64,000 bases of DNA. Origin: Candidatus Zhuqueibacterota bacterium (GTDB lineage Bacteria; Zhuqueibacterota; Zhuqueibacteria; Thermofontimicrobiales; Thermofontimicrobiaceae). The stretch is taken from contig JBMOPW010000034.1 in NCBI GenBank assembly GCA_049322915.1, forward strand, positions 96,001 through 160,000, in the 5' to 3' direction. Below the pieces are notes generated by a model. It searched no databases and was not told where the DNA came from. It was given only the letters and a program-made list of their open reading frames with translations. The position numbers were made by a program, and so were the translations under genes. Shown piece after piece: positions 19,601-30,453 of this stretch; the stretch's first letter is position 1; each line of letters begins with the position of its first letter.

Positions 19601-21955
19601 ATGCTCATGAAAATTCAAGTGTCAATTTTTATGTCGTTTCTCATTCTCTCCAACGTGTGTTATTCACAGATTATTGATATCCGCGAATTGCATCAAAATA
19701 ATTCCCAGGGACAGCCGCTTCTGCTGAATCAGGTGGTCACGATCTCTGGAGAAGTGACGGTTTCCAATCAGTTTGGACTGGTTGCATCTGTTCAGGATAG
19801 CAGCGCCGGCGTTATGGTTTACGATGCGGCGTTTGTCAGTGCTGTCGGGATCGGCGACTCGGTCACAATCTCCGGAAAAGTCACGCAATACCAGGGGCTG
19901 ACGGAGCTACAAAATATCACCATCCAATCGCATCGGATGAATTCACCGACAATTGAACCACAACGCGTCGCCTGCCGCGACATCGCCACCGAAGGAGCCG
20001 GCGGAATCGAGAATTTTGAAGGCGAGCTTCTCCGAATAGACGACGTCACTGTGAACACAACCGCGTGGGGTTCCAACGCGAATTACACCCTGAGTGACGC
20101 CACTGGTTCCTGCGCCATCCGCATCGATGACCAATGCAGCCTTGCCAATACCATGGCGCCGTCCGGTACGTTCGACGTGATTGGCGTACTTTCCCAGTAC
20201 GATACGAGTTCTCCTTACACCAGCGGCTATCAGCTCATGCCCCGTTTTTCATCAGATATTTTATGGCATTCCGGTGTGAAAATCACAAGCGCCGTTTCGG
20301 TCAAAAATATCACGCCCCATTCGCTCACGCTGTGCTGGGAAACCGATTCGCCAGCCAATTCCGCCGTCATCTTTGGACTGTCGGAAAATTATGAGATCGA
20401 TACAGTCACTGTGAGTGAGTCGGTCGTTGTTCACGAGGTTGAAATAACCGGACTGACGCCGGCAACCGTGTATCGCGTCAAAGTTGGCTCCTCCATTGGT
20501 TCGGATTTTAATTTCTCTTCGAATACAAATGTCATCACAGCTTCCGATCCAGCTTCCACCGGGAAAATCAATGTTTATTTCAACCAGTCCGTGGAACATG
20601 CGTATGCGGATTCAATGCAGGCGGCCGGGAACGTCAACCTGCTTTCGAAATTGATCCAGCGGATCAATGCTGCAAAATACTCCATTGATTTCTGTTTTTA
20701 CAACGTCACACAGGAAGAAGCAGCCCAGGTTTTGATCGGTGCACATCAACGGGGAGTTAAAGTGCGCGTCATTACTGAAGATGATAATGCCGATGAAGCC
20801 CCAATTCAATATTTGAAGGCGGCCGGCATTCCGGTCATCGACGACAAATTTGGCAACAATTCCGGGTCTGATTACATGCACAATAAGTTCATGGTCATTG
20901 ATCATCGCGACGCCTCATCCGCTTCGGACGATTGGGTCTGGACTGGTTCGTACAATGTTTCCTATTCAGCCACCTATGATAATGCTGAAAACGTGGTGGA
21001 AATTCAGGATCAGGCGCTGGCCGAATGCTACACCATTGAATTCAACGAAATGTGGGGCAGCAGCTCGGATACGCCGAACGAAGCGAATTCTGTTTTTGGT
21101 GATAATAAGACAGACAATACACCTCATTACTTCTCTATCAACGGAGTGGAAATGACGCAGGTGATGAGTCCGTCCGATGGCGGAAGCAATTATTTTGTCA
21201 ATCACATTCAACAAGCGCAAAGCTCGCTCTATTTCTGCATTTACAGTTTCACCCAGACTCAAATTGCCGATGCCATGCGCGAAAAATGGTATCAGGTACC
21301 CGGTTTCAAAGTGAAAGGGGTGTTCGATGCGCGCGGGTCCCAGTACGATAATTACTCGGGCGCCGGGAGTTATCCCTGGAATCCACCAGCTGATGTCCAT
21401 ATCGGAAACGAGGCAGGCATTGTGCACCACAAATATCTATTGATCGATGCCAATGGCGGACCGGGTCAGCCGGCGCTCATTACCGGATCCTACAATTGGA
21501 GCCTTGCCGCAGAAAATGAAAATGATGAAAATTTCCTCATTTTCACAGATGAGACAATCGCCAACCTTTACTTGCAGGAGTTCGCGGCCCGATACCACCG
21601 CGCTGGCGGGGCCGAGCTTCTCACATTTAGTTCGGTGAAGGATCAAGCAGAAACCACACTTCCCGAAACAATTTCTTTGGCTCAAAATTATCCCAATCCA
21701 TTCAATAGCCTCACCCGCATTCATTTCACCATTCCGTCATCGTTCAATGCCCGGGAAACAGCGCTCAAAATTTTTAATATCAATGGCCAGTTGGTAGCGA
21801 CTTTGCTTCATCAGAAAATGTCCGCCGGCCCTCATCAGGTCGATTGGGATGGACTGGACGGATGGGGCAAAAAGGTCGCTTCCGGCGTATATTTGTATCA
21901 ATTATCATTCGGCGATAACTATGTTTCGAGCAAAAAATTAATTGTGTTAGAATAA
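19601..21955 (+). CDS. secreted phospholipase D-superfamily (nuclease-like) protein with OB-fold-like/Fn3 regions and FlgD-Ig/T9SS-like C-terminal domain
   Basis: signal peptide, two HKD motifs (HNKFMVID, HHKYLLID) each with a TGSYN, C-terminal LAQNYPNPFN...SGVYLY. Confidence 0.85.
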   Translation: MLMKIQVSIFMSFLILSNVCYSQIIDIRELHQNNSQGQPLLLNQVVTISGEVTVSNQFGLVASVQDSSAGVMVYDAAFVSAVGIGDSVTISGKVTQYQGLTELQNITIQSHRMNSPTIEPQRVACRDIATEGAGGIENFEGELLRIDDVTVNTTAWGSNANYTLSDATGSCAIRIDDQCSLANTMAPSGTFDVIGVLSQYDTSSPYTSGYQLMPRFSSDILWHSGVKITSAVSVKNITPHSLTLCWETDSPANSAVIFGLSENYEIDTVTVSESVVVHEVEITGLTPATVYRVKVGSSIGSDFNFSSNTNVITASDPASTGKINVYFNQSVEHAYADSMQAAGNVNLLSKLIQRINAAKYSIDFCFYNVTQEEAAQVLIGAHQRGVKVRVITEDDNADEAPIQYLKAAGIPVIDDKFGNNSGSDYMHNKFMVIDHRDASSASDDWVWTGSYNVSYSATYDNAENVVEIQDQALAECYTIEFNEMWGSSSDTPNEANSVFGDNKTDNTPHYFSINGVEMTQVMSPSDGGSNYFVNHIQQAQSSLYFCIYSFTQTQIADAMREKWYQVPGFKVKGVFDARGSQYDNYSGAGSYPWNPPADVHIGNEAGIVHHKYLLIDANGGPGQPALITGSYNWSLAAENENDENFLIFTDETIANLYLQEFAARYHRAGGAELLTFSSVKDQAETTLPETISLAQNYPNPFNSLTRIHFTIPSSFNARETALKIFNINGQLVATLLHQKMSAGPHQVDWDGLDGWGKKVASGVYLYQLSFGDNYVSSKKLIVLE

Positions 21956-21996
21956 TTAACTATTTACCAGGTGCAGCAAGCAAGGAGAACAACGAT

Positions 21997-23043
21997 ATGC
22001 CTACAGGCACGATGAAAGCTGTGATGAAAACGATACCAGGCATTGGCGCAGAGTTAAAAAAAATGGCTATTCCCAGACCGGGAGTTGGCGAAGTGCTGGT
22101 TCGTGTGAAAGTAACGTCAATTTGCGGTTCCGATGTCCATATTTACAACTGGAATTCCTGGGCGCAGCAACATGTCAAGCCGCCTCAGATCATTGGGCAC
22201 GAATTGGCCGGCGAAGTTGTTGAATTGGGCCAGGGCGTATCATCACTAAAAATCGGTGATTTCATCTCCGCTGAGACTCACATCCCCTGTGGCTTTTGTA
22301 AGCAGTGCCGCACCGGCAACCAACACATTTGCAAACATTTGAAAATCCTGGGCGTGGATACCAATGGCGCTTTTGCGGAGTACATCGTCATTCCCGAAGT
22401 GGTCGCATGGAAAAACGATCCGGCCATTCCGCATCACTTCGCCTCGGTGCAGGAACCGCTCGGCAACGCCATTGACACAGTCCTCAGCGAGGACGTGGCT
22501 GGAAAATCGGTAGCCATCATCGGCGCAGGACCCATTGGCATGCTGGCCGTCGGAGTGGCCCGGGTCTCCGGGGCAACAGATATTTTCGTCACGGACATCA
22601 ACGACTATCGCCTGTCCATTGCAAAAAAAATGGGCGCGACAGCCACGTTCAATCCAAACAGCACGGACATTGTCAAAGAAATCCGCGACGCCACCAGCGG
22701 CGATGGCGTGGACGTTGTCCTGGAAATGTCGGGCAATGCAACGGCGCTGAATCAGGGGTGTCAGTTGCTGACGCCAGGCGGCCGCATTTCTCTATTAGGC
22801 GTTTTCAACGCGCCGGTGACACTTGAGTTGAACAATTTAATCATCTTCAAGGGCATTCGCGTGTATGGAATCACCGGTCGCAACATGTTTTCCACCTGGT
22901 TCAAAGGGGCCAATTTCCTCAAATCACGGACGCTGGACCTGAGCCCGGTGATCACCCATCAATTGACGCTCGATGATTTTCAACAAGGATTTGATCTGAT
23001 GAAATCGGGCATGTGCGGTAAAATTGTCATGTCGGTCGCATGA
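21997..23043 (+). CDS. tdh: L-threonine 3-dehydrogenase
   Basis: ICGSDVHIYNW, GHE, ETHIPCGFCKQC.....HIC, EPLGNA, IYGITGR-like motif, Zn-ADH fold. Confidence 0.95.
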   Translation: MPTGTMKAVMKTIPGIGAELKKMAIPRPGVGEVLVRVKVTSICGSDVHIYNWNSWAQQHVKPPQIIGHELAGEVVELGQGVSSLKIGDFISAETHIPCGFCKQCRTGNQHICKHLKILGVDTNGAFAEYIVIPEVVAWKNDPAIPHHFASVQEPLGNAIDTVLSEDVAGKSVAIIGAGPIGMLAVGVARVSGATDIFVTDINDYRLSIAKKMGATATFNPNSTDIVKEIRDATSGDGVDVVLEMSGNATALNQGCQLLTPGGRISLLGVFNAPVTLELNNLIIFKGIRVYGITGRNMFSTWFKGANFLKSRTLDLSPVITHQLTLDDFQQGFDLMKSGMCGKIVMSVA

Positions 23044-23130
23044 ACGTGAATTTTCCTATGCCGGCATGGACAAGTTCAATTCATCAGGACGAAGGTTCCT
23101 GTCGATCCGGATCTTCGAAAGGATGCACAC

Positions 23131-23508
23131 TTGATTTTTGGCATTGGCATTGACATCATCGAAGTCGCTCGCGTGGAGAAACAAATAGCCGGCGATGATT
23201 CCGGTTTTTTGAAGCGAATTTTCTCTGAAAAAGAGATTGGCTACTGCGAACTCAAGAGAAATAGAGCGCAGCACTATGCCGCGCGATTTGCTGCAAAGGA
23301 GGCGTTTTTCAAGGCGATTGGAATCGGCTGGAGAAATGGCCTGGCCTGGAGCGAAATTGAAATTCTTGATGATGATCTCGGAAAGCCGAATATTTTTTTG
23401 CACGGGAAAGCAAAACAATTTATTGATGAAAATCATATTAAACAGTTACATGTATCGCTTTCGCATTTAAAAGAAACTGCTGTGGCGGTTGTCATTCTGG
23501 AAATTTAG
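23131..23508 (+). CDS. acpS: holo-[acyl-carrier-protein] synthase
   Basis: GIGIDIIE, AARFAAKEA..KA.G.G, GKP, HVSLSH. Confidence 0.95.
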   Translation: MIFGIGIDIIEVARVEKQIAGDDSGFLKRIFSEKEIGYCELKRNRAQHYAARFAAKEAFFKAIGIGWRNGLAWSEIEILDDDLGKPNIFLHGKAKQFIDENHIKQLHVSLSHLKETAVAVVILEI

Positions 23509-23518
23509 AGGAGGATGT

Positions 23519-25225
23519 ATGTCCAATATCATCTCGTACGAGAAACGAATTCAGGATTTTAGCTGGTCGATTTCAGAGAAGGAACTGGGACATGAAAAAG
23601 GAAATGTCATCAATATTGGCTGGTACTGTTCCGACCGAATTTGTCAGATGGGAAAGGCCGAAAAGACTGCGTTGATCTGGGAAGGATTCGGCGGCAAAGA
23701 AAGGCAGTACACGTTCAATGAGATTCGCCTGGCCAGTAACGCTATTGGCTCCTTTCTAAGGCAAATTGGCATCAAAGACGGGGACAGAGTCTGCCTGTTT
23801 TTGGATAAAGTGCCGGAGTTGTATATCGGATTTCTGGGCATTTTGAAAATCGGGGCTATTGCACAGCCACTTTTCTCCGCCTTTGGTGACGAGTCCCTGT
23901 TTGTCCGACTGGAAAATGCGGAGACGAACGCCATTATCACGCAGCGGAAGCATGTTGCAAAAGTCCGGAAAATTCGTGAGTCGCTTCCGTCGTTGAAGCA
24001 TATCATCATTGTGGATCATGACGATAAAAAGCCGCTGCAGGAACGCGAGATTGCATTTTCACTGGATGACGCTGATCCGGTCGAACATCTGGAAATTCAT
24101 CCAACCAGGGCAGAATCGCCGTCAGTCATTCATTACACGTCCGGAACGACCGGGCAGCCGAAAGGCGTTCAGCACGTCCATTATTCCCTCATCTCCCAAT
24201 ACCTCACCACCAAATGGGTACTGGATTTGCTGGACGATGATATTTATTGGTGCACCGCAGATCCGGGCTGGGTCACTGGTACGTCCTATGGAATCATCGG
24301 GCCCTGGAGTATGGGGATCACGCAGTGCGTGCTGGACGTTGGCTTTGGCGCCGAACATTGGTACCGATTCATTGAGAAGAATAAAGTCACTGTCTGGTAC
24401 TCCGCTCCCACAGCAATCCGCTCGCTGATGAAAGCCGGCGATGAAATAGTCAATAAATTCGATATGTCCACCCTGCGCCATCTGGCAAGCGTTGGCGAGC
24501 CGCTCAATGCGGAGGCTGTGGTCTGGTCGGAAAAAGTATTTGGCCTGCCCTTTCACGATACTTTCTGGCAGACGGAGACCGGCTCAATAATGATCAGCAA
24601 TTATCCGGGCATGAAGATCAAGCCGGGATCCATGGGTAAGCCTTTCCCTGGAATCAACGGCACTGTCATCAGCGCCGAGACCTATCAGCCATTTGATGGC
24701 CCGGGGAAAATTGGACTCATTGCCTTCCAACCGGGCTGGCCGGCCATGATGCGGACTTATTGGAAGAATGAAAAGACGTACAAGAGCAAGTTTGTGAACG
24801 GCTGGTATCTTTCCGGCGATCGCGCGAGCATTGACAAAGACGGTTACTTCTGGTTCGTCGGCCGGGACGATGATGTCATCAATACCGGCGGCCATCTCGT
24901 CAGTCCGTTCGAAGTCGAATCTGCGCTGCTCGAATTTCCGGCAGTGGCAGAATCAGCCGTGGTGAGCAAACCGGATCCCATCAACATGGAGGTCGTCAAA
25001 GCCTTCGTGGCGTTGAAACCGGGCTACTCTCCCAATTCTGATATCGAGCTGGAGATAATGAACTTCATCCGCAAAAAACTTTCTCCGTTGGCCATGCCCC
25101 AGGAGATCGAATTTGTCGAATCCCTGCCCAAAACGCGCAGCGGAAAAATTATGCGGCGATTGCTTCATGCGAAAGAATGGGGCGAGGAAATTGGCGACAC
25201 ATCCACGCTGGAAAATGATGCATAA
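23519..25225 (+). CDS. acsA: AMP-forming acetate--CoA (or acetate--ACP) ligase
   Basis: HYTSGTTGQPKG, WCTADPGWVTG, SVGEPLN, DTFWQTETG, KTRSGKIMRR; SD GAGG before ATG 23519. Confidence 0.9.
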   Translation: MSNIISYEKRIQDFSWSISEKELGHEKGNVINIGWYCSDRICQMGKAEKTALIWEGFGGKERQYTFNEIRLASNAIGSFLRQIGIKDGDRVCLFLDKVPELYIGFLGILKIGAIAQPLFSAFGDESLFVRLENAETNAIITQRKHVAKVRKIRESLPSLKHIIIVDHDDKKPLQEREIAFSLDDADPVEHLEIHPTRAESPSVIHYTSGTTGQPKGVQHVHYSLISQYLTTKWVLDLLDDDIYWCTADPGWVTGTSYGIIGPWSMGITQCVLDVGFGAEHWYRFIEKNKVTVWYSAPTAIRSLMKAGDEIVNKFDMSTLRHLASVGEPLNAEAVVWSEKVFGLPFHDTFWQTETGSIMISNYPGMKIKPGSMGKPFPGINGTVISAETYQPFDGPGKIGLIAFQPGWPAMMRTYWKNEKTYKSKFVNGWYLSGDRASIDKDGYFWFVGRDDDVINTGGHLVSPFEVESALLEFPAVAESAVVSKPDPINMEVVKAFVALKPGYSPNSDIELEIMNFIRKKLSPLAMPQEIEFVESLPKTRSGKIMRRLLHAKEWGEEIGDTSTLENDA

Positions 25226-25322
25226 TTTGGGGCAATTGTCAGCCTGATTTAACTGTTTGAATATCTTTTCGCTTAAATCGAGTGAATAGTTGTCAGCTTT
25301 CAACCATCAGCTAAAAAAAAAT

Positions 25323-25673
25323 CGTAACTGTTCAGTCACAAAGTCTCAAAGGCGCGAGGAAAAAAATACATCTACCCTGAATTATTCATGAACTTGCTCA
25401 GAATTTGAGTCAACATTCATATTTTCAATTAGCTAAAGGCTAAGCTATTTTGAAACTCAGTTTTTATATGTTTATTCTAAAAAGAGCACCATTCAGGTTA
25501 GCCAGCCTCCTCTAAAAATATTATGAATAATGCAGGCTAACTTATCGATTCAGTAAAGCTGAACGTGGATTAAAAATATGAATTGCCCAAGATAAGAACG
25601 AATAAAATGACATGTTCGAGTAACTTTGTAGCGTGGTGACTTCGCGGCGAGACTACATGCCTGGATAGCGACG
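25323..25673. mobile_element. composite MITE-like element, copy 2 (inverted relative to copy 1)
   Basis: ends CGTAACTGTTCAG and CTGGATAGCGACG; reverse complement aligns with 18484-18560 and about 18755-19038. Confidence 0.7.
25376..25536. mobile_element. 161-bp inner MITE, copy 2
   Basis: CCTGAATTATTCAT...ATGAATAATGCAGG flanked by CTAC/CTAA; reverse complement of 18825-18985 with few substitutions. Confidence 0.8.
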
Positions 25674-25770
25674 AAAATTCTCTTTAACCCGGAACCGGGA
25701 GCCTTTAAACATGGAACCTTAGTGGTTACAAAATTTCATAAAAATTTAATTAATCAAAAGGAGATTGAAG

Positions 25771-26016
25771 ATGGATGACATGCAAAAAATCATTTTGGAA
25801 TACGTGCGGAACGAGTACCTTGAAGATGAAGACGAAGAACTTGACGTCGATACCCCGCTCATTTCCGGCGGCATTGTGGATTCGTTTTCTATGGTTTCAT
25901 TGAAACGATTTTTGGAGAATAAATATAAAATTTCCATTCCCGATGACAAGGCCACACCCGAAGCGTTCGACACGGTCGATAACATCTGCCAACTGGTGCG
26001 GCATTATCTGAAATAG
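25771..26016 (+). CDS. acyl/aminoacyl carrier protein
   Basis: small acidic protein with phosphopantetheine site GIVDSFSMV; DltC-like rather than AcpP-like (LGADSLD absent); SD GGAG. Confidence 0.9.
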   Translation: MDDMQKIILEYVRNEYLEDEDEELDVDTPLISGGIVDSFSMVSLKRFLENKYKISIPDDKATPEAFDTVDNICQLVRHYLK

Positions 26017-26216
26017 CGCCGGCATAAATCAGGATGGCTATTCCGCCAGCGACTGACCAAATGCAAGCTGGATAACCTTTTTCTCAGCGTCACAGATCGA
26101 TCCGACTGCGGCCCACGAATGCGTTGACGATCTGGTCATGGCCAATTGAAGTGTCACTGGAACGAGGCTCATGATTCACATTCACTTAACATTCCTACAG
26201 AAAACAGGAGAGCAAC

Positions 26217-27464
26217 ATGGCATATAGCGATAAAGTCAGACATATTTATCAGGACGAAATTAAGAATATACAAGATTTAGGCTTATTCAAAGTTGAACGA
26301 TTTATTCATGATCCACAAGCTGCCGATATTTCTGTGGAGTTCCCGACTGGCGCGTCGTTGAAAAAAGTGATTAACATGTGCGCCAATAATTATCTTGGCC
26401 TCTCCAGCCACCCGGACGTCGTGAAAGCGGCTCACGAAGGATTGGATCACCGCGGCTATGGAATGTCTTCTGTCCGTTTCATCTGCGGAACACAGGATAT
26501 TCACGATCAATTGGAAAAAATGATGACCCAATTTCTGGGAACCGAAGACACCATTCTCTTCCCTTCGTGCATGGACGCCAACGCCGGCGTATTTGAAGCC
26601 GTACTCGGAGAGAACGATGTGATGATTTCCGATCGATTGGTTCATGCGTCCATCATCGATGGCATTCGATTGTGCAAGGCACAGACCGATACGTTCAAAC
26701 ACTCCAACATGGAACATCTGGAAGAGAAATTACAATTGCATTCGGACAAACGTTTGAAAGTCATTATTACGGATGGCGTTTTTTCCATGGACGGCGATAC
26801 CGCCCGGCTGGATGAGATAGTCGCGTTGGCCGAAAAATACGATGCGTTGGTCTTTGTGGATGACTCCCACTCTTCCGGCTTCATCGGCAAAACCGGTCGC
26901 GGCACCCATGAAAAATACGGCGTCATGGGAAAAATCGATATCATCACTACGACTTTTGGTAAGGCATTAGGCGGCGCTTCCGGCGGCTGTGTTTCCGGAC
27001 GCAAGGAAATTGTTCAGCTATGCCGTCAGAAGGCTCGCCCCTATCTGTTCTCCAACACGATGGCGCCGGTGATTGTTTCCGGAGTCCTTCGCGTGCTGGA
27101 AATCCTGTCTAAAAGCACCGAGCGTCGGGACAAATTGGAGCGTAACACAGAATACTGGCGCAAAGGATTGTCAGACGCCGGATTCATTTTGAAAGAAGGC
27201 GATACGCCCATCGTTCCGGTCATGTTGTTCAACGCGAAGCTGTCCCAGGATATTTCCAAAGACCTGTACGCCGAGGGCATTTACGCTGTTGGATTTTTCT
27301 TCCCGGTGGTTCCGAAAGGCCAGGCTCGAATCAGAACTCAAATTTCCGCCGGCCATGAAATCCATCACCTCGATAAAGCACTGGACGCATTCACCAAAGT
27401 TGGGAAAAAATATAATATCCTGGGCAAGACAAAGCAGGAAATCATTGATATGTATGGGATATAA
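26217..27464 (+). CDS. kbl: glycine C-acetyltransferase (2-amino-3-ketobutyrate CoA ligase)
   Basis: CANNYLGL, SSVRFICGTQDIH, HASIIDG, DGVFSMDG, DDSH, TFGKALGG, RPYLFSN, ARIRTQ. Confidence 0.93.
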   Translation: MAYSDKVRHIYQDEIKNIQDLGLFKVERFIHDPQAADISVEFPTGASLKKVINMCANNYLGLSSHPDVVKAAHEGLDHRGYGMSSVRFICGTQDIHDQLEKMMTQFLGTEDTILFPSCMDANAGVFEAVLGENDVMISDRLVHASIIDGIRLCKAQTDTFKHSNMEHLEEKLQLHSDKRLKVIITDGVFSMDGDTARLDEIVALAEKYDALVFVDDSHSSGFIGKTGRGTHEKYGVMGKIDIITTTFGKALGGASGGCVSGRKEIVQLCRQKARPYLFSNTMAPVIVSGVLRVLEILSKSTERRDKLERNTEYWRKGLSDAGFILKEGDTPIVPVMLFNAKLSQDISKDLYAEGIYAVGFFFPVVPKGQARIRTQISAGHEIHHLDKALDAFTKVGKKYNILGKTKQEIIDMYGI

Positions 27465-27478
27465 CCTATTGAAATCTG

Positions 27479-27535
27479 AATCCATCGGATCCCGGCATGC
27501 TGCAAAGTCAACGCATCGCCTGGATCCGATGGATT
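27479..27535. repeat. long intergenic hairpin
   Basis: perfect 14-bp inverted repeat AATCCATCGGATCC / GGATCCGATGGATT with further internal pairing; no U tract. Confidence 0.7.
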
Positions 27536-27619
27536 GGCTCGCGCAGTTCATCATTATCACAACAGTAGTGACATGCTGCAATGGTGTCGAAAGAATTGTA
27601 AACATGAAAGGAGGTCACA

Positions 27620-28567
27620 ATGCTCGGTGAAATGAAAGTCTTCTCAGGAAGTTCGAATCCTGAATTGGCCGTCAATATTTGCAAATATCTCAACATTCCC
27701 CTGAGCCAGTCCAGCACATTCAGATTTTCCGAAGGGAATGTCTATGTGAAAATTCAGGAAAGCGTCCGTCAGGCGCACGTATTTTTTATTCAGTCCGGAG
27801 CCCATCCGATTAATGACCTGATCATGGAAACTCTTTTTTTTATTGATGCGTTTAAACGTTCAAGCGCTGCATCGGTGACGGTGATTCTGCCCTATTTTCC
27901 ATATACCAAAGGGGATAAAAAAGACGAGCCGCGAGTTTCCATTCGGGCCAAAGTCGTTTCGGAAATCATCGAAGCCACTGGCGCGAATCGCGTGTTGACC
28001 ATGGATTTGCAGCCTCCTCAAATTCAGGGATTTTTTAACATTCCAGTCGATAATCTCTACGCGCTGCCGGTTTTTTGTGAGTACCTCAATACAATTCGAC
28101 TCAAGGATACCATCATTGTTGCGCCCGATTTTGGCGCGGCGCGAATGGCCAACCGATTTGCGCTTCAACTCAACTGCCCTGTCGCTGTCGCCAGCAAGCG
28201 ACGGCTCGGCCACACGGAAGAGGTGGAGCTCACGCAGATCTTTGGCGATGTGGAAAATAAAGACGTCATCATCGTGGACGACATGGTGATCAGCGGCGGC
28301 ACTTTGCTTGAAATTAGCAAATCTCTAAAAAATCAGGGCGCGGCAAACATCTATGCTTGTATCAGCCATGCGCTTCTCAGCGATAAATTTTTAACCAGTC
28401 TGGAGACCAGTGAAATTGACCAATTAATTGTGACTGATTCTATTCCATTTTCTCAAAAAGGAAATAAAAAAGTCATACAGATTTCCGTGGCCAGGTTATT
28501 CAGCGAAGCAATTTCAAGTATTTATTATGGGGATTCCATCAGCACGTTATTCAAGGATGTTGAGTAA
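27620..28567 (+). CDS. prs: ribose-phosphate pyrophosphokinase (divergent)
   Basis: F.EG, ESVR, PYFPY, QIQGFF..PVDNL, APD.G, KRR, DDM..SGGTL. Confidence 0.88.
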   Translation: MLGEMKVFSGSSNPELAVNICKYLNIPLSQSSTFRFSEGNVYVKIQESVRQAHVFFIQSGAHPINDLIMETLFFIDAFKRSSAASVTVILPYFPYTKGDKKDEPRVSIRAKVVSEIIEATGANRVLTMDLQPPQIQGFFNIPVDNLYALPVFCEYLNTIRLKDTIIVAPDFGAARMANRFALQLNCPVAVASKRRLGHTEEVELTQIFGDVENKDVIIVDDMVISGGTLLEISKSLKNQGAANIYACISHALLSDKFLTSLETSEIDQLIVTDSIPFSQKGNKKVIQISVARLFSEAISSIYYGDSISTLFKDVE

Positions 28568-28587
28568 TTTTCTTCGGGTATTTTCTC

Positions 28588-30453
28588 ATGGAGGGTGGTA
28601 TGCTACCACGGCGCAACACGTTTAAAAAATTTCCTTCCATCGCATTGTCTTTGTATTTGACGCTGACCTGCATTTTTGTTCTGGGCTGGAAAGACGCATC
28701 CGCGCAGAGCGCGATTTCATACTACATCGAAATCGATGAGGAGCATTGGAATTCCTTCTTTGTTGCGCTGACAATTCAAAATAATGTGGCTGACCAGTTT
28801 CTATGCCAGATTCCCCGGTGGAGTCCTGTCTCTCCCACGGCATGCGAATATCACACAAATATTTTTGATTTTGAAGCCAAAGGCGACATGGGGCAATCGC
28901 TGGAAGTGACAAAGTTAAATTCACATTCCTGGCTCGTCGAGTGCCAGAAGAGCACGGTCGTCATAATTTCCTATAAAATCAAGGCCTCGTCAAATAACCT
29001 CTCCGGCATCAAATTGGACAGAAGTTTTGCGAGCGTCAATTGCGCCGCAACCTTCATGTCTATTCGCGAGTTGATGATGCAGCCGGTTCAGCTTGTTGTC
29101 CGCGTGCCACATGGCTGGAAACTGGCGACGGGTCTGCCGACCACTGAATCGTTCGAATATTTCGCTCAGGACTACAATCAACTGGCCAACAATATTTTGT
29201 ACATGGCGCCCTTTTTCAACACGGATTTTTCTTACAAAAACAGGAACTTTTTCCTGATCGTTGATGGGCCGCGCAATTTCAAAGTCAACAAATTGCTGAC
29301 GATCATCCAGCGATTGATCAAAGAGAGCTATCAAATATTCGGTGAATTGCCGTTTGACCAATACATGTTCATTTTCAAAAACCGCGAAAATCAATTTACG
29401 ATCACCTCGCAGTCATTCAGCAATTGCTCCGTCATCTATGTGCCGAGCCGCGTCTCAAAAGATGATCTCATTCAACTCAGCCAGGAAATTTCCAGCAGCC
29501 TGTATAAAACATGGAACGGGTCGAAGTTCGCCCCGCAAAGCTATCTTCAGAAAAATTACCAATTGATCCCGCGCTCCACAAATTTATGGGTCATTCTTGG
29601 TCTGAACGATTATCTCGGGCTTCTTTCCCTCATTCGGGCTGGGATCATTGAAAAAGAATATTTCATCCAATATCAGATTCGCCAGATCAATGACATACTC
29701 CGACAGAGAAATTTTCACGACAATTCAATCACTGACCTGAGCTACAATATCAGCGATTACGATTACTCCGAAGTCGCGGAGATTTTAAAGCTGAAAGGCC
29801 ATGTGCTGGGTTTTCTTCTCGATGTCTATATCCGTTCCAATACGGAGAACACTCGGTCTCTGGTCGATGTGTTGCAATTTCTCAACTCGTGGTTTGGACA
29901 GCAAAGTGAAGGGTACAGCGATACTCAGATTCTGCAAGCCATCAACTCCGTCACAGCGCTTAACCTGACCTCATTCTTTGATAAATACATCAACGGCACG
30001 CTGCCTTTCCCTTCGAAGGAAATTTTTGCCAAAGCCGGTATCTTCATCGAATCGGTTCAGGACACTCTGCCGGACTTCGGCCCCATTTCCATTTCTGAAA
30101 ATGACAATCGCGTCCTTGAAGTGCCGGAAGCCAGTCCCCTGGCGTTCGCCGGGCTGAAAGTAGGAGACAAGCTTCTGTCCATCAACGATTTGAAATTGCA
30201 GCATCCAATTCAATTTGATCGATTCGTCGATTCGCTGCACGTGGGACAGGAAACGGATTTGAACGTCCAGCGTCAGGGATTAATGCTGATGTTGAGCGCC
30301 AAGGTTGCCGGTAAAATTTGCCAGGTGTATAAACTCATCGATGCTATTCCCAAAAATGAGTTGCAGATTCAAATTCAGAACAGTATGTTTTTCACGGAAA
30401 CGGCTGAAAAAAAAGTTAATGCCACGGACACATTACCAAAACAAAAAGAATAA
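28588..30453 (+). CDS. M61 peptidase-like protein with PDZ domain, apparently lacking Zn ligands
   Basis: M61-like N-terminus (P.WSP, P.GWKLATGL), KG..LGFLLD..IR, PDZ SPLA.AGLKVGD; HExxH absent. Confidence 0.7.
   Translation: MEGGMLPRRNTFKKFPSIALSLYLTLTCIFVLGWKDASAQSAISYYIEIDEEHWNSFFVALTIQNNVADQFLCQIPRWSPVSPTACEYHTNIFDFEAKGDMGQSLEVTKLNSHSWLVECQKSTVVIISYKIKASSNNLSGIKLDRSFASVNCAATFMSIRELMMQPVQLVVRVPHGWKLATGLPTTESFEYFAQDYNQLANNILYMAPFFNTDFSYKNRNFFLIVDGPRNFKVNKLLTIIQRLIKESYQIFGELPFDQYMFIFKNRENQFTITSQSFSNCSVIYVPSRVSKDDLIQLSQEISSSLYKTWNGSKFAPQSYLQKNYQLIPRSTNLWVILGLNDYLGLLSLIRAGIIEKEYFIQYQIRQINDILRQRNFHDNSITDLSYNISDYDYSEVAEILKLKGHVLGFLLDVYIRSNTENTRSLVDVLQFLNSWFGQQSEGYSDTQILQAINSVTALNLTSFFDKYINGTLPFPSKEIFAKAGIFIESVQDTLPDFGPISISENDNRVLEVPEASPLAFAGLKVGDKLLSINDLKLQHPIQFDRFVDSLHVGQETDLNVQRQGLMLMLSAKVAGKICQVYKLIDAIPKNELQIQIQNSMFFTETAEKKVNATDTLPKQKE

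Follow-up and report, generated by a model that had tools for sequence, protein, structure and literature searches.

A conserved carrier protein, acetate ligase and Kbl paralogue suggest a carrier-linked connection between acetate, glycine and threonine

What might a small carrier protein be doing between the two genes of the threonine cleavage pair? In the window, a 64,000-nt stretch of contig JBMOPW010000034.1 from a Candidatus Zhuqueibacterota bacterium, the genes for Tdh and Kbl are separated by genes for a phosphopantetheinyl transferase (PPTase), an AMP-forming acetate ligase and a carrier protein. The initial annotation described six co-oriented genes, tdh-acpS-acs-acp-kbl-prs, and all six open reading frames are present on the + strand at the following positions.

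21997..23043, + strand: Zn-dependent L-threonine 3-dehydrogenase, Tdh (TIGR00692 480.5 bits, cut-off 458.35; NF003808 461.5, cut-off 380)
23131..23508, + strand: holo-ACP synthase AcpS, housekeeping PPTase (TIGR00516 109.7, cut-off 59.8; PF01648 71 bits)
23519..25225, + strand: AcsA-type AMP-forming acetate ligase, proposed acetate:holo-carrier ligase (NF003313 760.6, cut-off 729)
25322..25730, no strand assigned: repeat element of ~400 nt, MITE-like, with a ~170-nt core, in the acs-carrier spacer (BLASTN against its own genome)
25771..26016, + strand: small dedicated carrier protein of the type II PCP/ACP kind (PF00550 22.1, cut-off 20.8)
26217..27464, + strand: Kbl paralogue "Kbl1," glycine C-acetyltransferase family, carrier-linked clade (NF005394 573.4, cut-off 460)
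27620..28567, + strand: ribose-phosphate diphosphokinase Prs, a neighbor outside the conserved module (NF002320 357.4, cut-off 297)

The frame of the ligase opens with TTG at 23489 and runs to 25225, and the ATG at 23519, which gives 568 amino acids as in a same-genus relative, is most likely the start; the gene then does not overlap acpS. Similarly, the carrier frame opens with TTG at 25765 and runs to 26016, with an ATG at 25771 that sits 7 nt after GGAG. This ATG is most likely the start, giving 81 amino acids, the length of a 100%-identical database protein (P0001). Rfam gave no match within 21000-29000.

The arrangement recurs well beyond this genome. A search with only the carrier protein gave the 80 best related loci (carrier identity 65 to 83%), which represent at least eight phyla and belong to genomes titled KSB1, Zixibacteria, Delongbacteria, Bacteroidales, Aminicenantes, Cloacimonadota, Elusimicrobia, and Ignavibacteria. 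Kbl1 lies directly 3′ of the carrier gene in 79 of them and an AcsA-type ligase at most 400 nt 5′ of it in 74; AcpS is encoded further 5′ in the same orientation in 47 of the 66 related loci having at least 2,300 nt of flank. The carrier-Kbl1-ligase gene order is far beyond chance, with the carrier protein and the Kbl paralogue as its conserved core. Among 61 relatives, the genomes with Kbl1-type genes (at least 67% identity, full length) are precisely the 11 that have the carrier, with none among the other 50, and the module-type ligase is likewise confined to carrier-positive genomes (7/7). In module loci, cross-phylum identity is 65 to 85% for the carrier, the ligase and Kbl1, against 46 to 60% for AcpS and 50 to 61% for the second Kbl. 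At the level of sequence comparison, a conserved unit of carrier, AcsA-type ligase and distinct Kbl clade is supported. We found no paper on a carrier-ligase-Kbl module in the literature. Many uncultured anaerobes retain the unit in nearly the same form.

The ligase is not an obligatory member of the unit. In 4 of the 80 best related loci, the available flank beside the carrier showed no ligase, and a sister lineage comprising four genomes, with the order Tdh-AcpS-carrier-KblA-KblB, likewise yielded none. At the head of a ligase-less variant in genome G021 stands a Zn-ADH-family gene that we take for Tdh because of its position. In another relative, G007, the order is Tdh-AcpS-Kbl-M61 and both carrier and ligase are missing; some of the gene order is therefore inherited synteny.

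The other neighbors differ in how closely they follow this core. Tdh holds the same position in a same-genus genome, heading the unit, and an SDR-type Tdh, unrelated to the Zn type, heads it in Ignavibacteria and Zixibacteria loci; the SDR type was also present in all five other module genomes tested. That two nonhomologous types head the unit in different lineages speaks for Tdh as a part of the module. Adjacency speaks against it, since among the 80 best related loci the SDR type adjoins the module in 8 and the Zn type in 1, on the opposite strand and at 44% identity. The PPTase is the sole AcpS-type PPTase in the 6.25-Mb genome, and we therefore regard it as a housekeeping enzyme and not as a private part of the module. 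The other PF01648 match is a 280-amino-acid frame on contig C10, which bears multicarrier megasynthase frames. Prs, suggested as a neighboring source of AMP, gained no support, being adjacent to the module in none of the 80 best related loci and a neighbor in this genus only, where the same-genus genome has a 315-amino-acid open reading frame in its position (known by length and place).

In an alignment of 41 carrier sequences from many phyla, Asp39-Ser40-Phe41 is invariant, as are about 30 columns, and an Asp-Ser motif so conserved implies that the carrier bears its cargo as a thioester. Helix II begins at Ser40 in the AF2 model (pLDDT 90.3), whose best fold matches are PigG, PltL, and DltC (TM 0.82); the nearest solved folds include PigG and PltL crystallized with the adenylating enzymes PigI and PltF, and one match is a DltC-AcpS complex. 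The carriers of the PigG-PigI, PltL-PltF, and DltC-DltA systems, the best matches by sequence as well as fold, are likewise free-standing type II proteins, loaded in each case by an ANL-type enzyme. What they carry is an amino acid, proline or D-alanine, destined for secondary metabolism or teichoic acids, whereas the ligase encoded next to the module carrier has an acetate pocket.

Aligned to Salmonella enterica Acs, the ligase keeps V310, T311, V386, W414, R584, and K609, so that the acetate pocket and catalytic Lys are retained, as is Arg584, a contact of the CoA 3′-phosphate; S523 is Gly and R526 is Leu. It scores 560 bits to the solved Bacillus-type AcsA (9g79; NF003313) and has a similar length of ~570 amino acids, and module ligases are 67 to 82% identical across phyla. 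In 63 of 63 module ligases, S. enterica positions 521 to 529 read N-T-[GA]-G-H-L-V-S-P, Leu replacing Arg526, a difference from Bacillus-type AcsA. As a module-diagnostic change this was rejected, because Leu also occupies the position in 24 of 89 family representatives, including P0123 (889 bits to the acetate-CoA ligase model), and no other residue change in module ligases proved diagnostic. The ligase is the only Acs-level match in its genome, and the module ligase is likewise the only Acs in four of five other module genomes.

Tdh and Kbl1 belong to the families of the classical threonine cleavage pair (solved Kbl 1fc4 and 7bxp), passing TIGR00692 and NF005394. Kbl1 scores 444 to 457 bits to solved Kbl enzymes (457 for 7bxp) and is about 57% identical to them; H143, D215, H218, K249, and R373 are invariant, and the catalytic Lys, His, and Asp are thus shared. 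It differs from classical Kbl in forming a separate monophyletic clade (65 leaves, support 0.92 to 0.96), with signature residues of its own and a C-terminal extension, in having a carrier gene before it, and in usually coexisting with a canonical Kbl, here encoded on contig C26. A second Kbl is found in 32 of the 80 best related loci, and median cross-phylum identity is 80% for Kbl1 versus 59% for the second paralogues. Clade-specific residues include N142V, E140R, F119M, and S273A; N142V adjoins the invariant His143, and Y115F, S116P, and F119M fall within the conserved segment 114-128. The thiol substrate of Kbl1 may differ as well, being the carrier protein rather than CoA.

Taken together, the genes suggest that the acetyl group may travel on a private carrier protein rather than on coenzyme A, and a carrier-protein version of the acetate/glycine/threonine link would be the best explanation of the unit. 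We imagine that AcpS would phosphopantetheinylate Ser40 of the carrier and that the ligase would form acetyl-AMP from acetate and ATP and then acetylate the holo-carrier in place of CoA. Kbl1 would then condense acetyl-S-carrier with glycine to 2-amino-3-ketobutyrate, which Tdh, identified by family score, would reduce to threonine if the route runs in that direction. By our own argument, a private carrier kept fully acetylated by a ligase converting ATP to AMP and PPi could drive the condensation while leaving the acetyl-CoA/CoA ratio undisturbed. The AasR/AcpR/serine palmitoyltransferase system of Caulobacter crescentus and other Rhodobacteria also places a dedicated carrier and an ANL-family ligase beside an alpha-oxoamine synthase; there, AasR acylates its own carrier exclusively and leaves CoA untouched, the synthase favors the acyl-carrier, and a long-chain fatty acid and serine yield a sphingoid base (PMC9386255). 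The present module differs in its AcsA-type acetate ligase, its Kbl paralogue and its threonine dehydrogenase context.

We consider it fairly probable that acetyl groups shuttle on the holo-carrier between the ligase and Kbl1, in one direction or the other, because of the linkage in 79 and 74 of 80 loci, the match of Kbl1 to carrier occurrence (11/11) and the separate Kbl1 clade, and also because of the carrier motif and fold, the retained acetate pocket and Lys, and the two Tdh types at the head of the unit. Against this stand the scores of the ligase, the only Acs of the genome, as a true acetate-CoA ligase and of Kbl1 as a true glycine C-acetyltransferase, the Leu at Arg526 that is not module specific, the retained Arg584, and the loci without a ligase, including G007. 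Furthermore, at many loci a canonical-type Kbl lies in the same gene string and, with Kbl1, would sum to acetate → acetyl-CoA. The initial annotation's reading is thus supported in part: comparison favors the conserved carrier/ligase/Kbl unit and, in some lineages, the Tdh association, but not a private PPTase, Prs as an AMP source, or an obligatory ligase.

For direction, we lean tentatively toward assimilation, acetate and glycine to threonine. Acetate kinase is present in 11/11 module genomes among relatives, so a normal ATP-yielding acetate exit exists; a canonical Kbl coexists; the source genome lacks Hom and has neither thrB nor thrC above cut-off; and threonine production through Kbl and Tdh is described in PMC3439479. 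The same text names obstacles, as 2-amino-3-ketobutyrate decays fast, decarboxylating spontaneously to aminoacetone, and Kbl has some threonine aldolase activity. The proposed anticorrelation with the ThrABC route is weak: Hom occurs in 2/11 module genomes versus 30/50 others among relatives, and in 3/54 versus 8/67 in the class holding the genome of locus L054. In that class 59 of 121 genomes lack both module and Hom, so absence of Hom does not call for a module route.

The shuttle could instead run catabolically, with Tdh oxidizing threonine, Kbl1 and holo-carrier yielding glycine and acetyl-carrier, and a reversed ligase converting acetyl-carrier, AMP, and PPi to acetate and ATP. Tdh/Kbl is the classical threonine breakdown pair, the frequent poverty of module genomes in threonine biosynthesis genes fits amino-acid-consuming auxotrophs, and a ligase-less variant is easier to picture if Kbl loads the carrier. 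In Syntrophus aciditrophicus, an AMP-forming Acs is reported to run in reverse and make ATP from PPi, but that case reportedly rests on absence of the usual phosphate-dependent route (PMC4992975), whereas the module relatives have acetate kinase. Given also that a coexisting canonical, CoA-dependent Kbl would do the same job and that the 80 best related loci show no module-linked gene that would supply PPi, we find this direction unlikely.

Alternatively, both enzymes may use CoA as annotated, the carrier being, for example, a regulator or scaffold or serving an enzyme encoded elsewhere. Both pass curated equivalog cut-offs, and the sole-Acs status of the ligase, its lack of a diagnostic residue, the housekeeping AcpS, and the carrier-Kbl pairs without ligase all agree with this. 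Pat-like protein acetyltransferases are regulators of Acs, and in cluster 7 (11 loci) genes for them are found close to it. Yet this reading leaves unexplained a Kbl1 clade limited to carrier genomes and a carrier gene directly 5′ of Kbl1, and it sits poorly with a thioester-bearing carrier and with module proteins far more conserved than AcpS or the second Kbl; we judge it rather improbable. A product other than threonine seems more doubtful still, whether an aminoketone-derived signal or metabolite (aminoacetone, or pyrazines from 2-amino-3-ketobutyrate) or the outcome of another acyl group or amino acid used by Kbl1. N142V, Y115F, S116P, and F119M, near catalytic or conserved motifs, could affect the chemistry and not the docking, Tdh is nonadjacent in most loci, and aminoacetone forms spontaneously, but the acetate pocket is intact, Kbl1 keeps its catalytic residues and its closeness to solved Kbl, two unrelated Tdh types were recruited, and no conserved tailoring or export genes were seen around the module.

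Finally, the acs-carrier spacer is 540 nt here versus 100 nt in the same-genus genome. Compared with its own genome by BLASTN, the gap gave 145 HSPs, of which 78 span the core with at least 85% identity and 15 extend over nearly the whole element; the extra spacer DNA is a repeat element.

The six co-oriented genes that the initial annotation placed at 21997-28567 of the window were borne out by open reading frames and family scores, with corrections to starts and spacers:

21997-23043, + strand: Tdh, a Zn-type L-threonine 3-dehydrogenase (TIGR00692, 480.5 bits against a cut-off of 458.35; NF003808, 461.5 against 380)
23131-23508, + strand: AcpS (TIGR00516, 109.7 bits against 59.8)
23489-25225 (ORF), + strand: AcsA-type AMP-forming ligase (NF003313, 760.6 bits against 729)
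25765-26016 (ORF), + strand: small carrier protein (PF00550, 22.1 bits against 20.8)
26217-27464, + strand: Kbl (NF005394, 573.4 bits against 460; TIGR01822, 572.5 against 493)
27620-28567, + strand: Prs (NF002320, 357.4 bits against 297)

The ligase probably starts at ATG 23519, giving 568 aa, which is its length in the same-genus genome; most relatives have 566-569 aa. For the carrier gene, ATG 25771 is the probable start, with GGAG just before it, and its product would be 81 aa, as is the identical database protein. The ligase-carrier spacer is 540 nt in the window, compared to 100 nt in the same-genus genome. The extra DNA consists of a repeat element some 400 nt long (25322-25730, between the ligase and carrier genes), the core of which, about 170 nt, folds as a long hairpin; the genome holds 78 core and 15 near-full copies. 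An Rfam scan of window positions 21000-29000 gave 0 matches, with no riboswitch in either spacer, and a promoter and terminator scan gave counts not above those of shuffled sequence. Upstream, the gene at 19601-21955 codes for a PLD-family nuclease-like protein that is secreted and bears a T9SS sorting tail. Downstream, the product of 28588-30453 belongs to the M61 glycyl-aminopeptidase family and carries a PDZ domain; an M61 gene also comes after the module in two further loci, those of the same-genus genome and of the relative G007.

With the carrier protein alone as query and one genome per species, we obtained 448 confirmed relatives, the best 80 of which were kept as loci. These 80 come from genomes labelled KSB1, Zixibacteria, Delongbacteria, Bacteroidales, Aminicenantes, Cloacimonadota, Elusimicrobia, Ignavibacteria, and others. 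Among the best 80 of 448, a Kbl of at least 65% identity lies on the same strand no more than 1 kb downstream of the carrier in 79, the sole exception being a locus whose sequence stops 73 nt past the carrier gene, and the ligase ends at most 400 nt upstream of the carrier in 74. Of the six remaining loci, two have a ligase further upstream, with inserted genes between; for four, no ligase was seen within the available flank of 1074-7000 nt. AcpS is upstream in 47 of the 66 loci in this set that have at least 2300 nt of flank, and a second Kbl paralogue is present in 32 of the 80. In contrast, Zn-type Tdh is adjacent in just 1 of the 80, on the opposite strand and at 44% identity, and Prs in 0 of 80. 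We therefore reject Prs as a member of the system; it follows Kbl only in the window genome and in the same-genus genome, which has a 315-aa ORF at the same place. Across phyla, identity to the window is 67-82% for the ligase, 65-83% for the carrier, and 72-85% for Kbl, compared to just 46-60% for AcpS. No neighbors were conserved beyond lineage-specific ones (Pat-like, DcaP-like porin, thioredoxin-like, MntP, UvrA, and M61). The module of ligase, carrier, and carrier-linked Kbl (Kbl1) is common, with the carrier gene in 54 of 121 sampled genomes of the class that holds the genome of locus L054.

Some minor features of these loci may be recorded here. In 19 of them, a 420- to 495-aa protein without a Pfam match (cluster c5; for instance, L061:8763-10082) is encoded near the module, often beside a Pat-like acetyltransferase gene; Atlas puts it among DcaP-like porin clusters, with the family carried by only 13-16% of members. 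In one Zixibacteria locus (L034:5298-6963), the ligase gene matches as five pieces in different frames, reflecting either a pseudogene or sequencing errors in the MAG.

The small protein looks like a phosphopantetheine-dependent carrier by its PF00550 score, by an Asp-Ser at the start of helix II, and by its helical fold. Thirty columns are invariant in 41 carrier sequences, among them Asp39-Ser40-Phe41 and the greater part of the helix that comes next, and a confident AlphaFold (AF2) model (pLDDT 90.3) has helix II at 40-54, with Ser40 as its first residue. The closest solved folds are PigG, PltL, and DltC (TM up to 0.82, for PigG); in the matched crystal structures, PigG is trapped with its adenylating enzyme PigI and PltL with PltF. 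Among the matches is a DltC-AcpS complex, and thus an AcpS-type enzyme can serve carriers of such a kind. The best NCBIfam match is the ornithine-lipid carrier ACP_for_OlsHI (NF052616); we do not consider the carrier a member, since 62.2 bits is far under the cut-off of 130.

A reading of AcpS as a phosphopantetheinyl transferase private to the module was not borne out, given that the genome lacks a second AcpS; its other PF01648 match is a 280-aa frame on contig C10, beside multi-carrier megasynthase frames on the same contig. Of five other module genomes, four carry one AcpS-type gene each and the fifth carries two; two of the four single copies are in the module, one is 6 kb off, and one is at least 14 kb off. 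Because it is the sole AcpS-type enzyme in the genome and mostly single copy elsewhere, we read AcpS as a housekeeping enzyme, recurrently linked to the module rather than private to it.

Kbl1 proteins group as a single clade of 65 leaves that includes no other Kbl (support 0.92-0.96). Median pairwise identity is 80% for Kbl1 and 59% for the second paralogues, compared to 53% between the groups. Kbl1 remains a recognizable member of its family; that of the window scores 457 bits to 7bxp and 444 to 1fc4, and H143, D215, H218, K249, and R373, presumably the PLP-binding Lys and the active-site His, Asp, and Arg, are invariant across 40 Kbl1 sequences. It differs from other Kbls at 19 near-fixed positions, including Y115F, S116P, F119M, A135V, E140R, N142V, D167H, L269C, and S273A. 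The second paralogues, too, score above the glycine C-acetyltransferase equivalog cut-off (580-670 bits); the canonical Kbl of this genome is on contig C26 (602 bits), without an adjoining Tdh.

The ligase of the window scores 560 bits to the solved AcsA 9g79. Its margin on NF003313 is narrow (760.6 against 729), while other family representatives score 840-894. It is the only Acs-level gene in the genome and in four of five other module genomes, with the fifth having an additional long canonical Acs (888 bits). Aligned with Salmonella enterica Acs (2p2f alignment), it keeps V310, T311, V386, W414, R584, and K609, and has Gly at S523 and Leu at R526. We take V310, T311, V386, and W414 (S. enterica numbering) to be acetate-pocket residues. 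Among 63 module ligases, the pocket Trp is found in 60, and the catalytic Lys (K609) and the motif N-T-[GA]-G-H-L-V-S-P in all 63; Leu occupies the R526 position, and R584 is conserved, in 63 of 63. The R191 region aligns poorly. One study describes R191, R526, and R584 of the S. enterica enzyme as strongly conserved and as playing an important part in the step that depends on CoA (PMC10455477).

Variants without the ligase or the carrier complicate a model built on all three parts. In a sister lineage, represented by four genomes from a single genus of the window genome's class, the order is Tdh-AcpS-carrier-KblA-KblB, followed by a PtsI-like gene, as read in two of the genomes (L111, G021:C21:7000-21000; L112, G026:C11:252000-266000). 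An AcsA-type ligase was not found at E 1e-80 anywhere in the four. KblA is sister to the Kbl1 clade (support 0.99) and shares with Kbl1 G75, F115, A123, a basic residue at 140, V142, and H167. In the family member G007 (L113, G007:C201:1-7137), the order is Tdh-AcpS-Kbl-M61, and both carrier and ligase are missing; the Kbl there combines a Kbl1-like C-terminal extension with canonical residues at most signature positions. Given the gene order in G007, the tdh, acpS, kbl, and M61 portion of the local arrangement is inherited synteny, into which ligase and carrier fit. We had considered the C-terminal extension as a carrier-docking feature and rejected it, because the Kbl of G007 has the extension and no carrier was found in that genome.

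The genome, which is 96% complete, has no match for homoserine dehydrogenase (Hom), found in 14 of 14 control genomes, and no thrB above cut-off. Its only ThrC-like gene, L103 (G000:C34:560213-564052; 429 aa), scores under all of the threonine synthase cut-offs (141 against 167 and 208 against 303 bits) and neighbors a xanthine-dehydrogenase-like gene. Anti-correlation of the module with Hom and ThrC was weak and is confounded by lineage. Hom is less frequent in module genomes, occurring in 2 of 11 compared to 30 of 50 others among 61 relatives, in 1 of 5 other module genomes, and, in the 121 genomes of L054's class, in 3 of 54 compared to 8 of 67. Many genomes lack both; entire module-free families among the 61 relatives are also without Hom, and in L054's class neither the module nor Hom is found in 59 of the 121 genomes.

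We imagine that the acetyl group would shuttle on the carrier between the ligase and Kbl1, coupled to Tdh. Judged from these genes, such a carrier-bound shuttle, running in either direction, would be the most economical explanation, and we hold it to be fairly probable. Less probably, the ligase and Kbl1 would use CoA in the ordinary manner and the carrier would have another role. A complex prediction for the Kbl1 dimer with the carrier scored 0.05 and 0.23, the mark being 0.32. The change from Arg526 to Leu would fit a switch of thiol substrate, but it is compatible rather than diagnostic, because Leu is also found in 24 of 89 single-domain representatives of the wider family (Arg in 50), and the Leu-bearing P0123 scores 889 bits on the acetate-CoA ligase model; we rejected it as a marker of lost CoA use. 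Among the 61 relatives, 11 have the carrier, and full-length Kbl1-type genes (at least 67% identity) occur in exactly these 11 and in 0 of the 50 others; the module-type ligase (79-85% identity) is in 7, all carrier-positive. Alternatively, the module may make a product other than threonine. Zn-type Tdh is at the head of the unit in the window and in the same-genus genome, and the Ignavibacteria and Zixibacteria loci have at that position an SDR-family enzyme scoring 430 bits to solved SDR-type threonine dehydrogenases. The SDR type was found in all five other module genomes tested, adjacent in two, and the Zn type in none of them. The recruitment of two unrelated types of Tdh is the strongest evidence for 2-amino-3-ketobutyrate as the shared intermediate.

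A carrier-bound shuttle may also run catabolically, from threonine to glycine and acetate with the ligase reversed. The Hom pattern suits threonine-degrading auxotrophs as well as replacement biosynthesis and cannot separate the two. Acetate kinase is found in 11 of the 11 module genomes among the 61 relatives, and therefore a reversed ligase would not be needed for ATP. We lean toward the assimilatory direction, acetate plus glycine to threonine, since a CoA-type Kbl coexists with Kbl1, the usual acetate-forming route exists, and a private carrier could aid an ATP-driven push. One can envision that the acetate:carrier ligase would hold its private carrier almost fully acetylated and, through it, push the unfavorable Kbl condensation at the expense of ATP. 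An earlier study indicates that threonine can be made through Kbl and Tdh and that 2-amino-3-ketobutyrate is short-lived (PMC3439479). A more tentative idea, which we think rather unlikely to hold, is that in many anaerobes a second, protein-bound acetyl pool, kept alongside acetyl-CoA, drives the Kbl condensation and gives threonine without the aspartate/homoserine route; central metabolism would then have a branch independent of CoA, concealed by the annotations "acetyl-CoA synthetase" and "glycine C-acetyltransferase."

The closest characterized system is AasR-AcpR-SPT, in which genes for a dedicated carrier and an ANL ligase likewise co-occur with that of the synthase. In that system, acylation by the specialized ligase is confined to its own carrier, and the acylated carrier is the preferred substrate of the alpha-oxoamine synthase (PMC9386255). 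The module would follow the same logic, but with acetate, glycine, and a Kbl paralogue. Full-text literature searches outside subscription journals returned no account of such a module. Should the carrier prove to be the true thiol substrate, carrier-dependent forms of two textbook "CoA" enzymes would be widespread and beyond the reach of automatic annotation to tell apart. In that case, acetate use and threonine/glycine metabolism would have been reconstructed wrongly in KSB1, Ignavibacteria, Cloacimonadota, Aminicenantes, Zixibacteria, and many Bacteroidales. The related locus L070 comes from a genome labelled as a Draconibacterium orientale MAG, and cultured relatives may therefore carry the module.

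The genome of the window has other genes of these families. At L108 (G000:C45:6000-18000), there is a second ANL ligase, located some 0.9 kb upstream of another small PP-binding frame (C45:12443-12604) and ahead of an asparagine-synthase-like amidotransferase. This ligase has as its second-best match the model for exosortase-A-associated acyl-CoA ligases (416 against 592 bits), and we read the locus as a separate, carrier-dependent cassette. At L107 (G000:C14:166000-178000), the gene of an SPT-like alpha-oxoamine synthase (NF047600, 573 against 640 bits), which may provide a sphingolipid or sulfonolipid starter, is divergent to a neighboring SDR epimerase/reductase-like gene.
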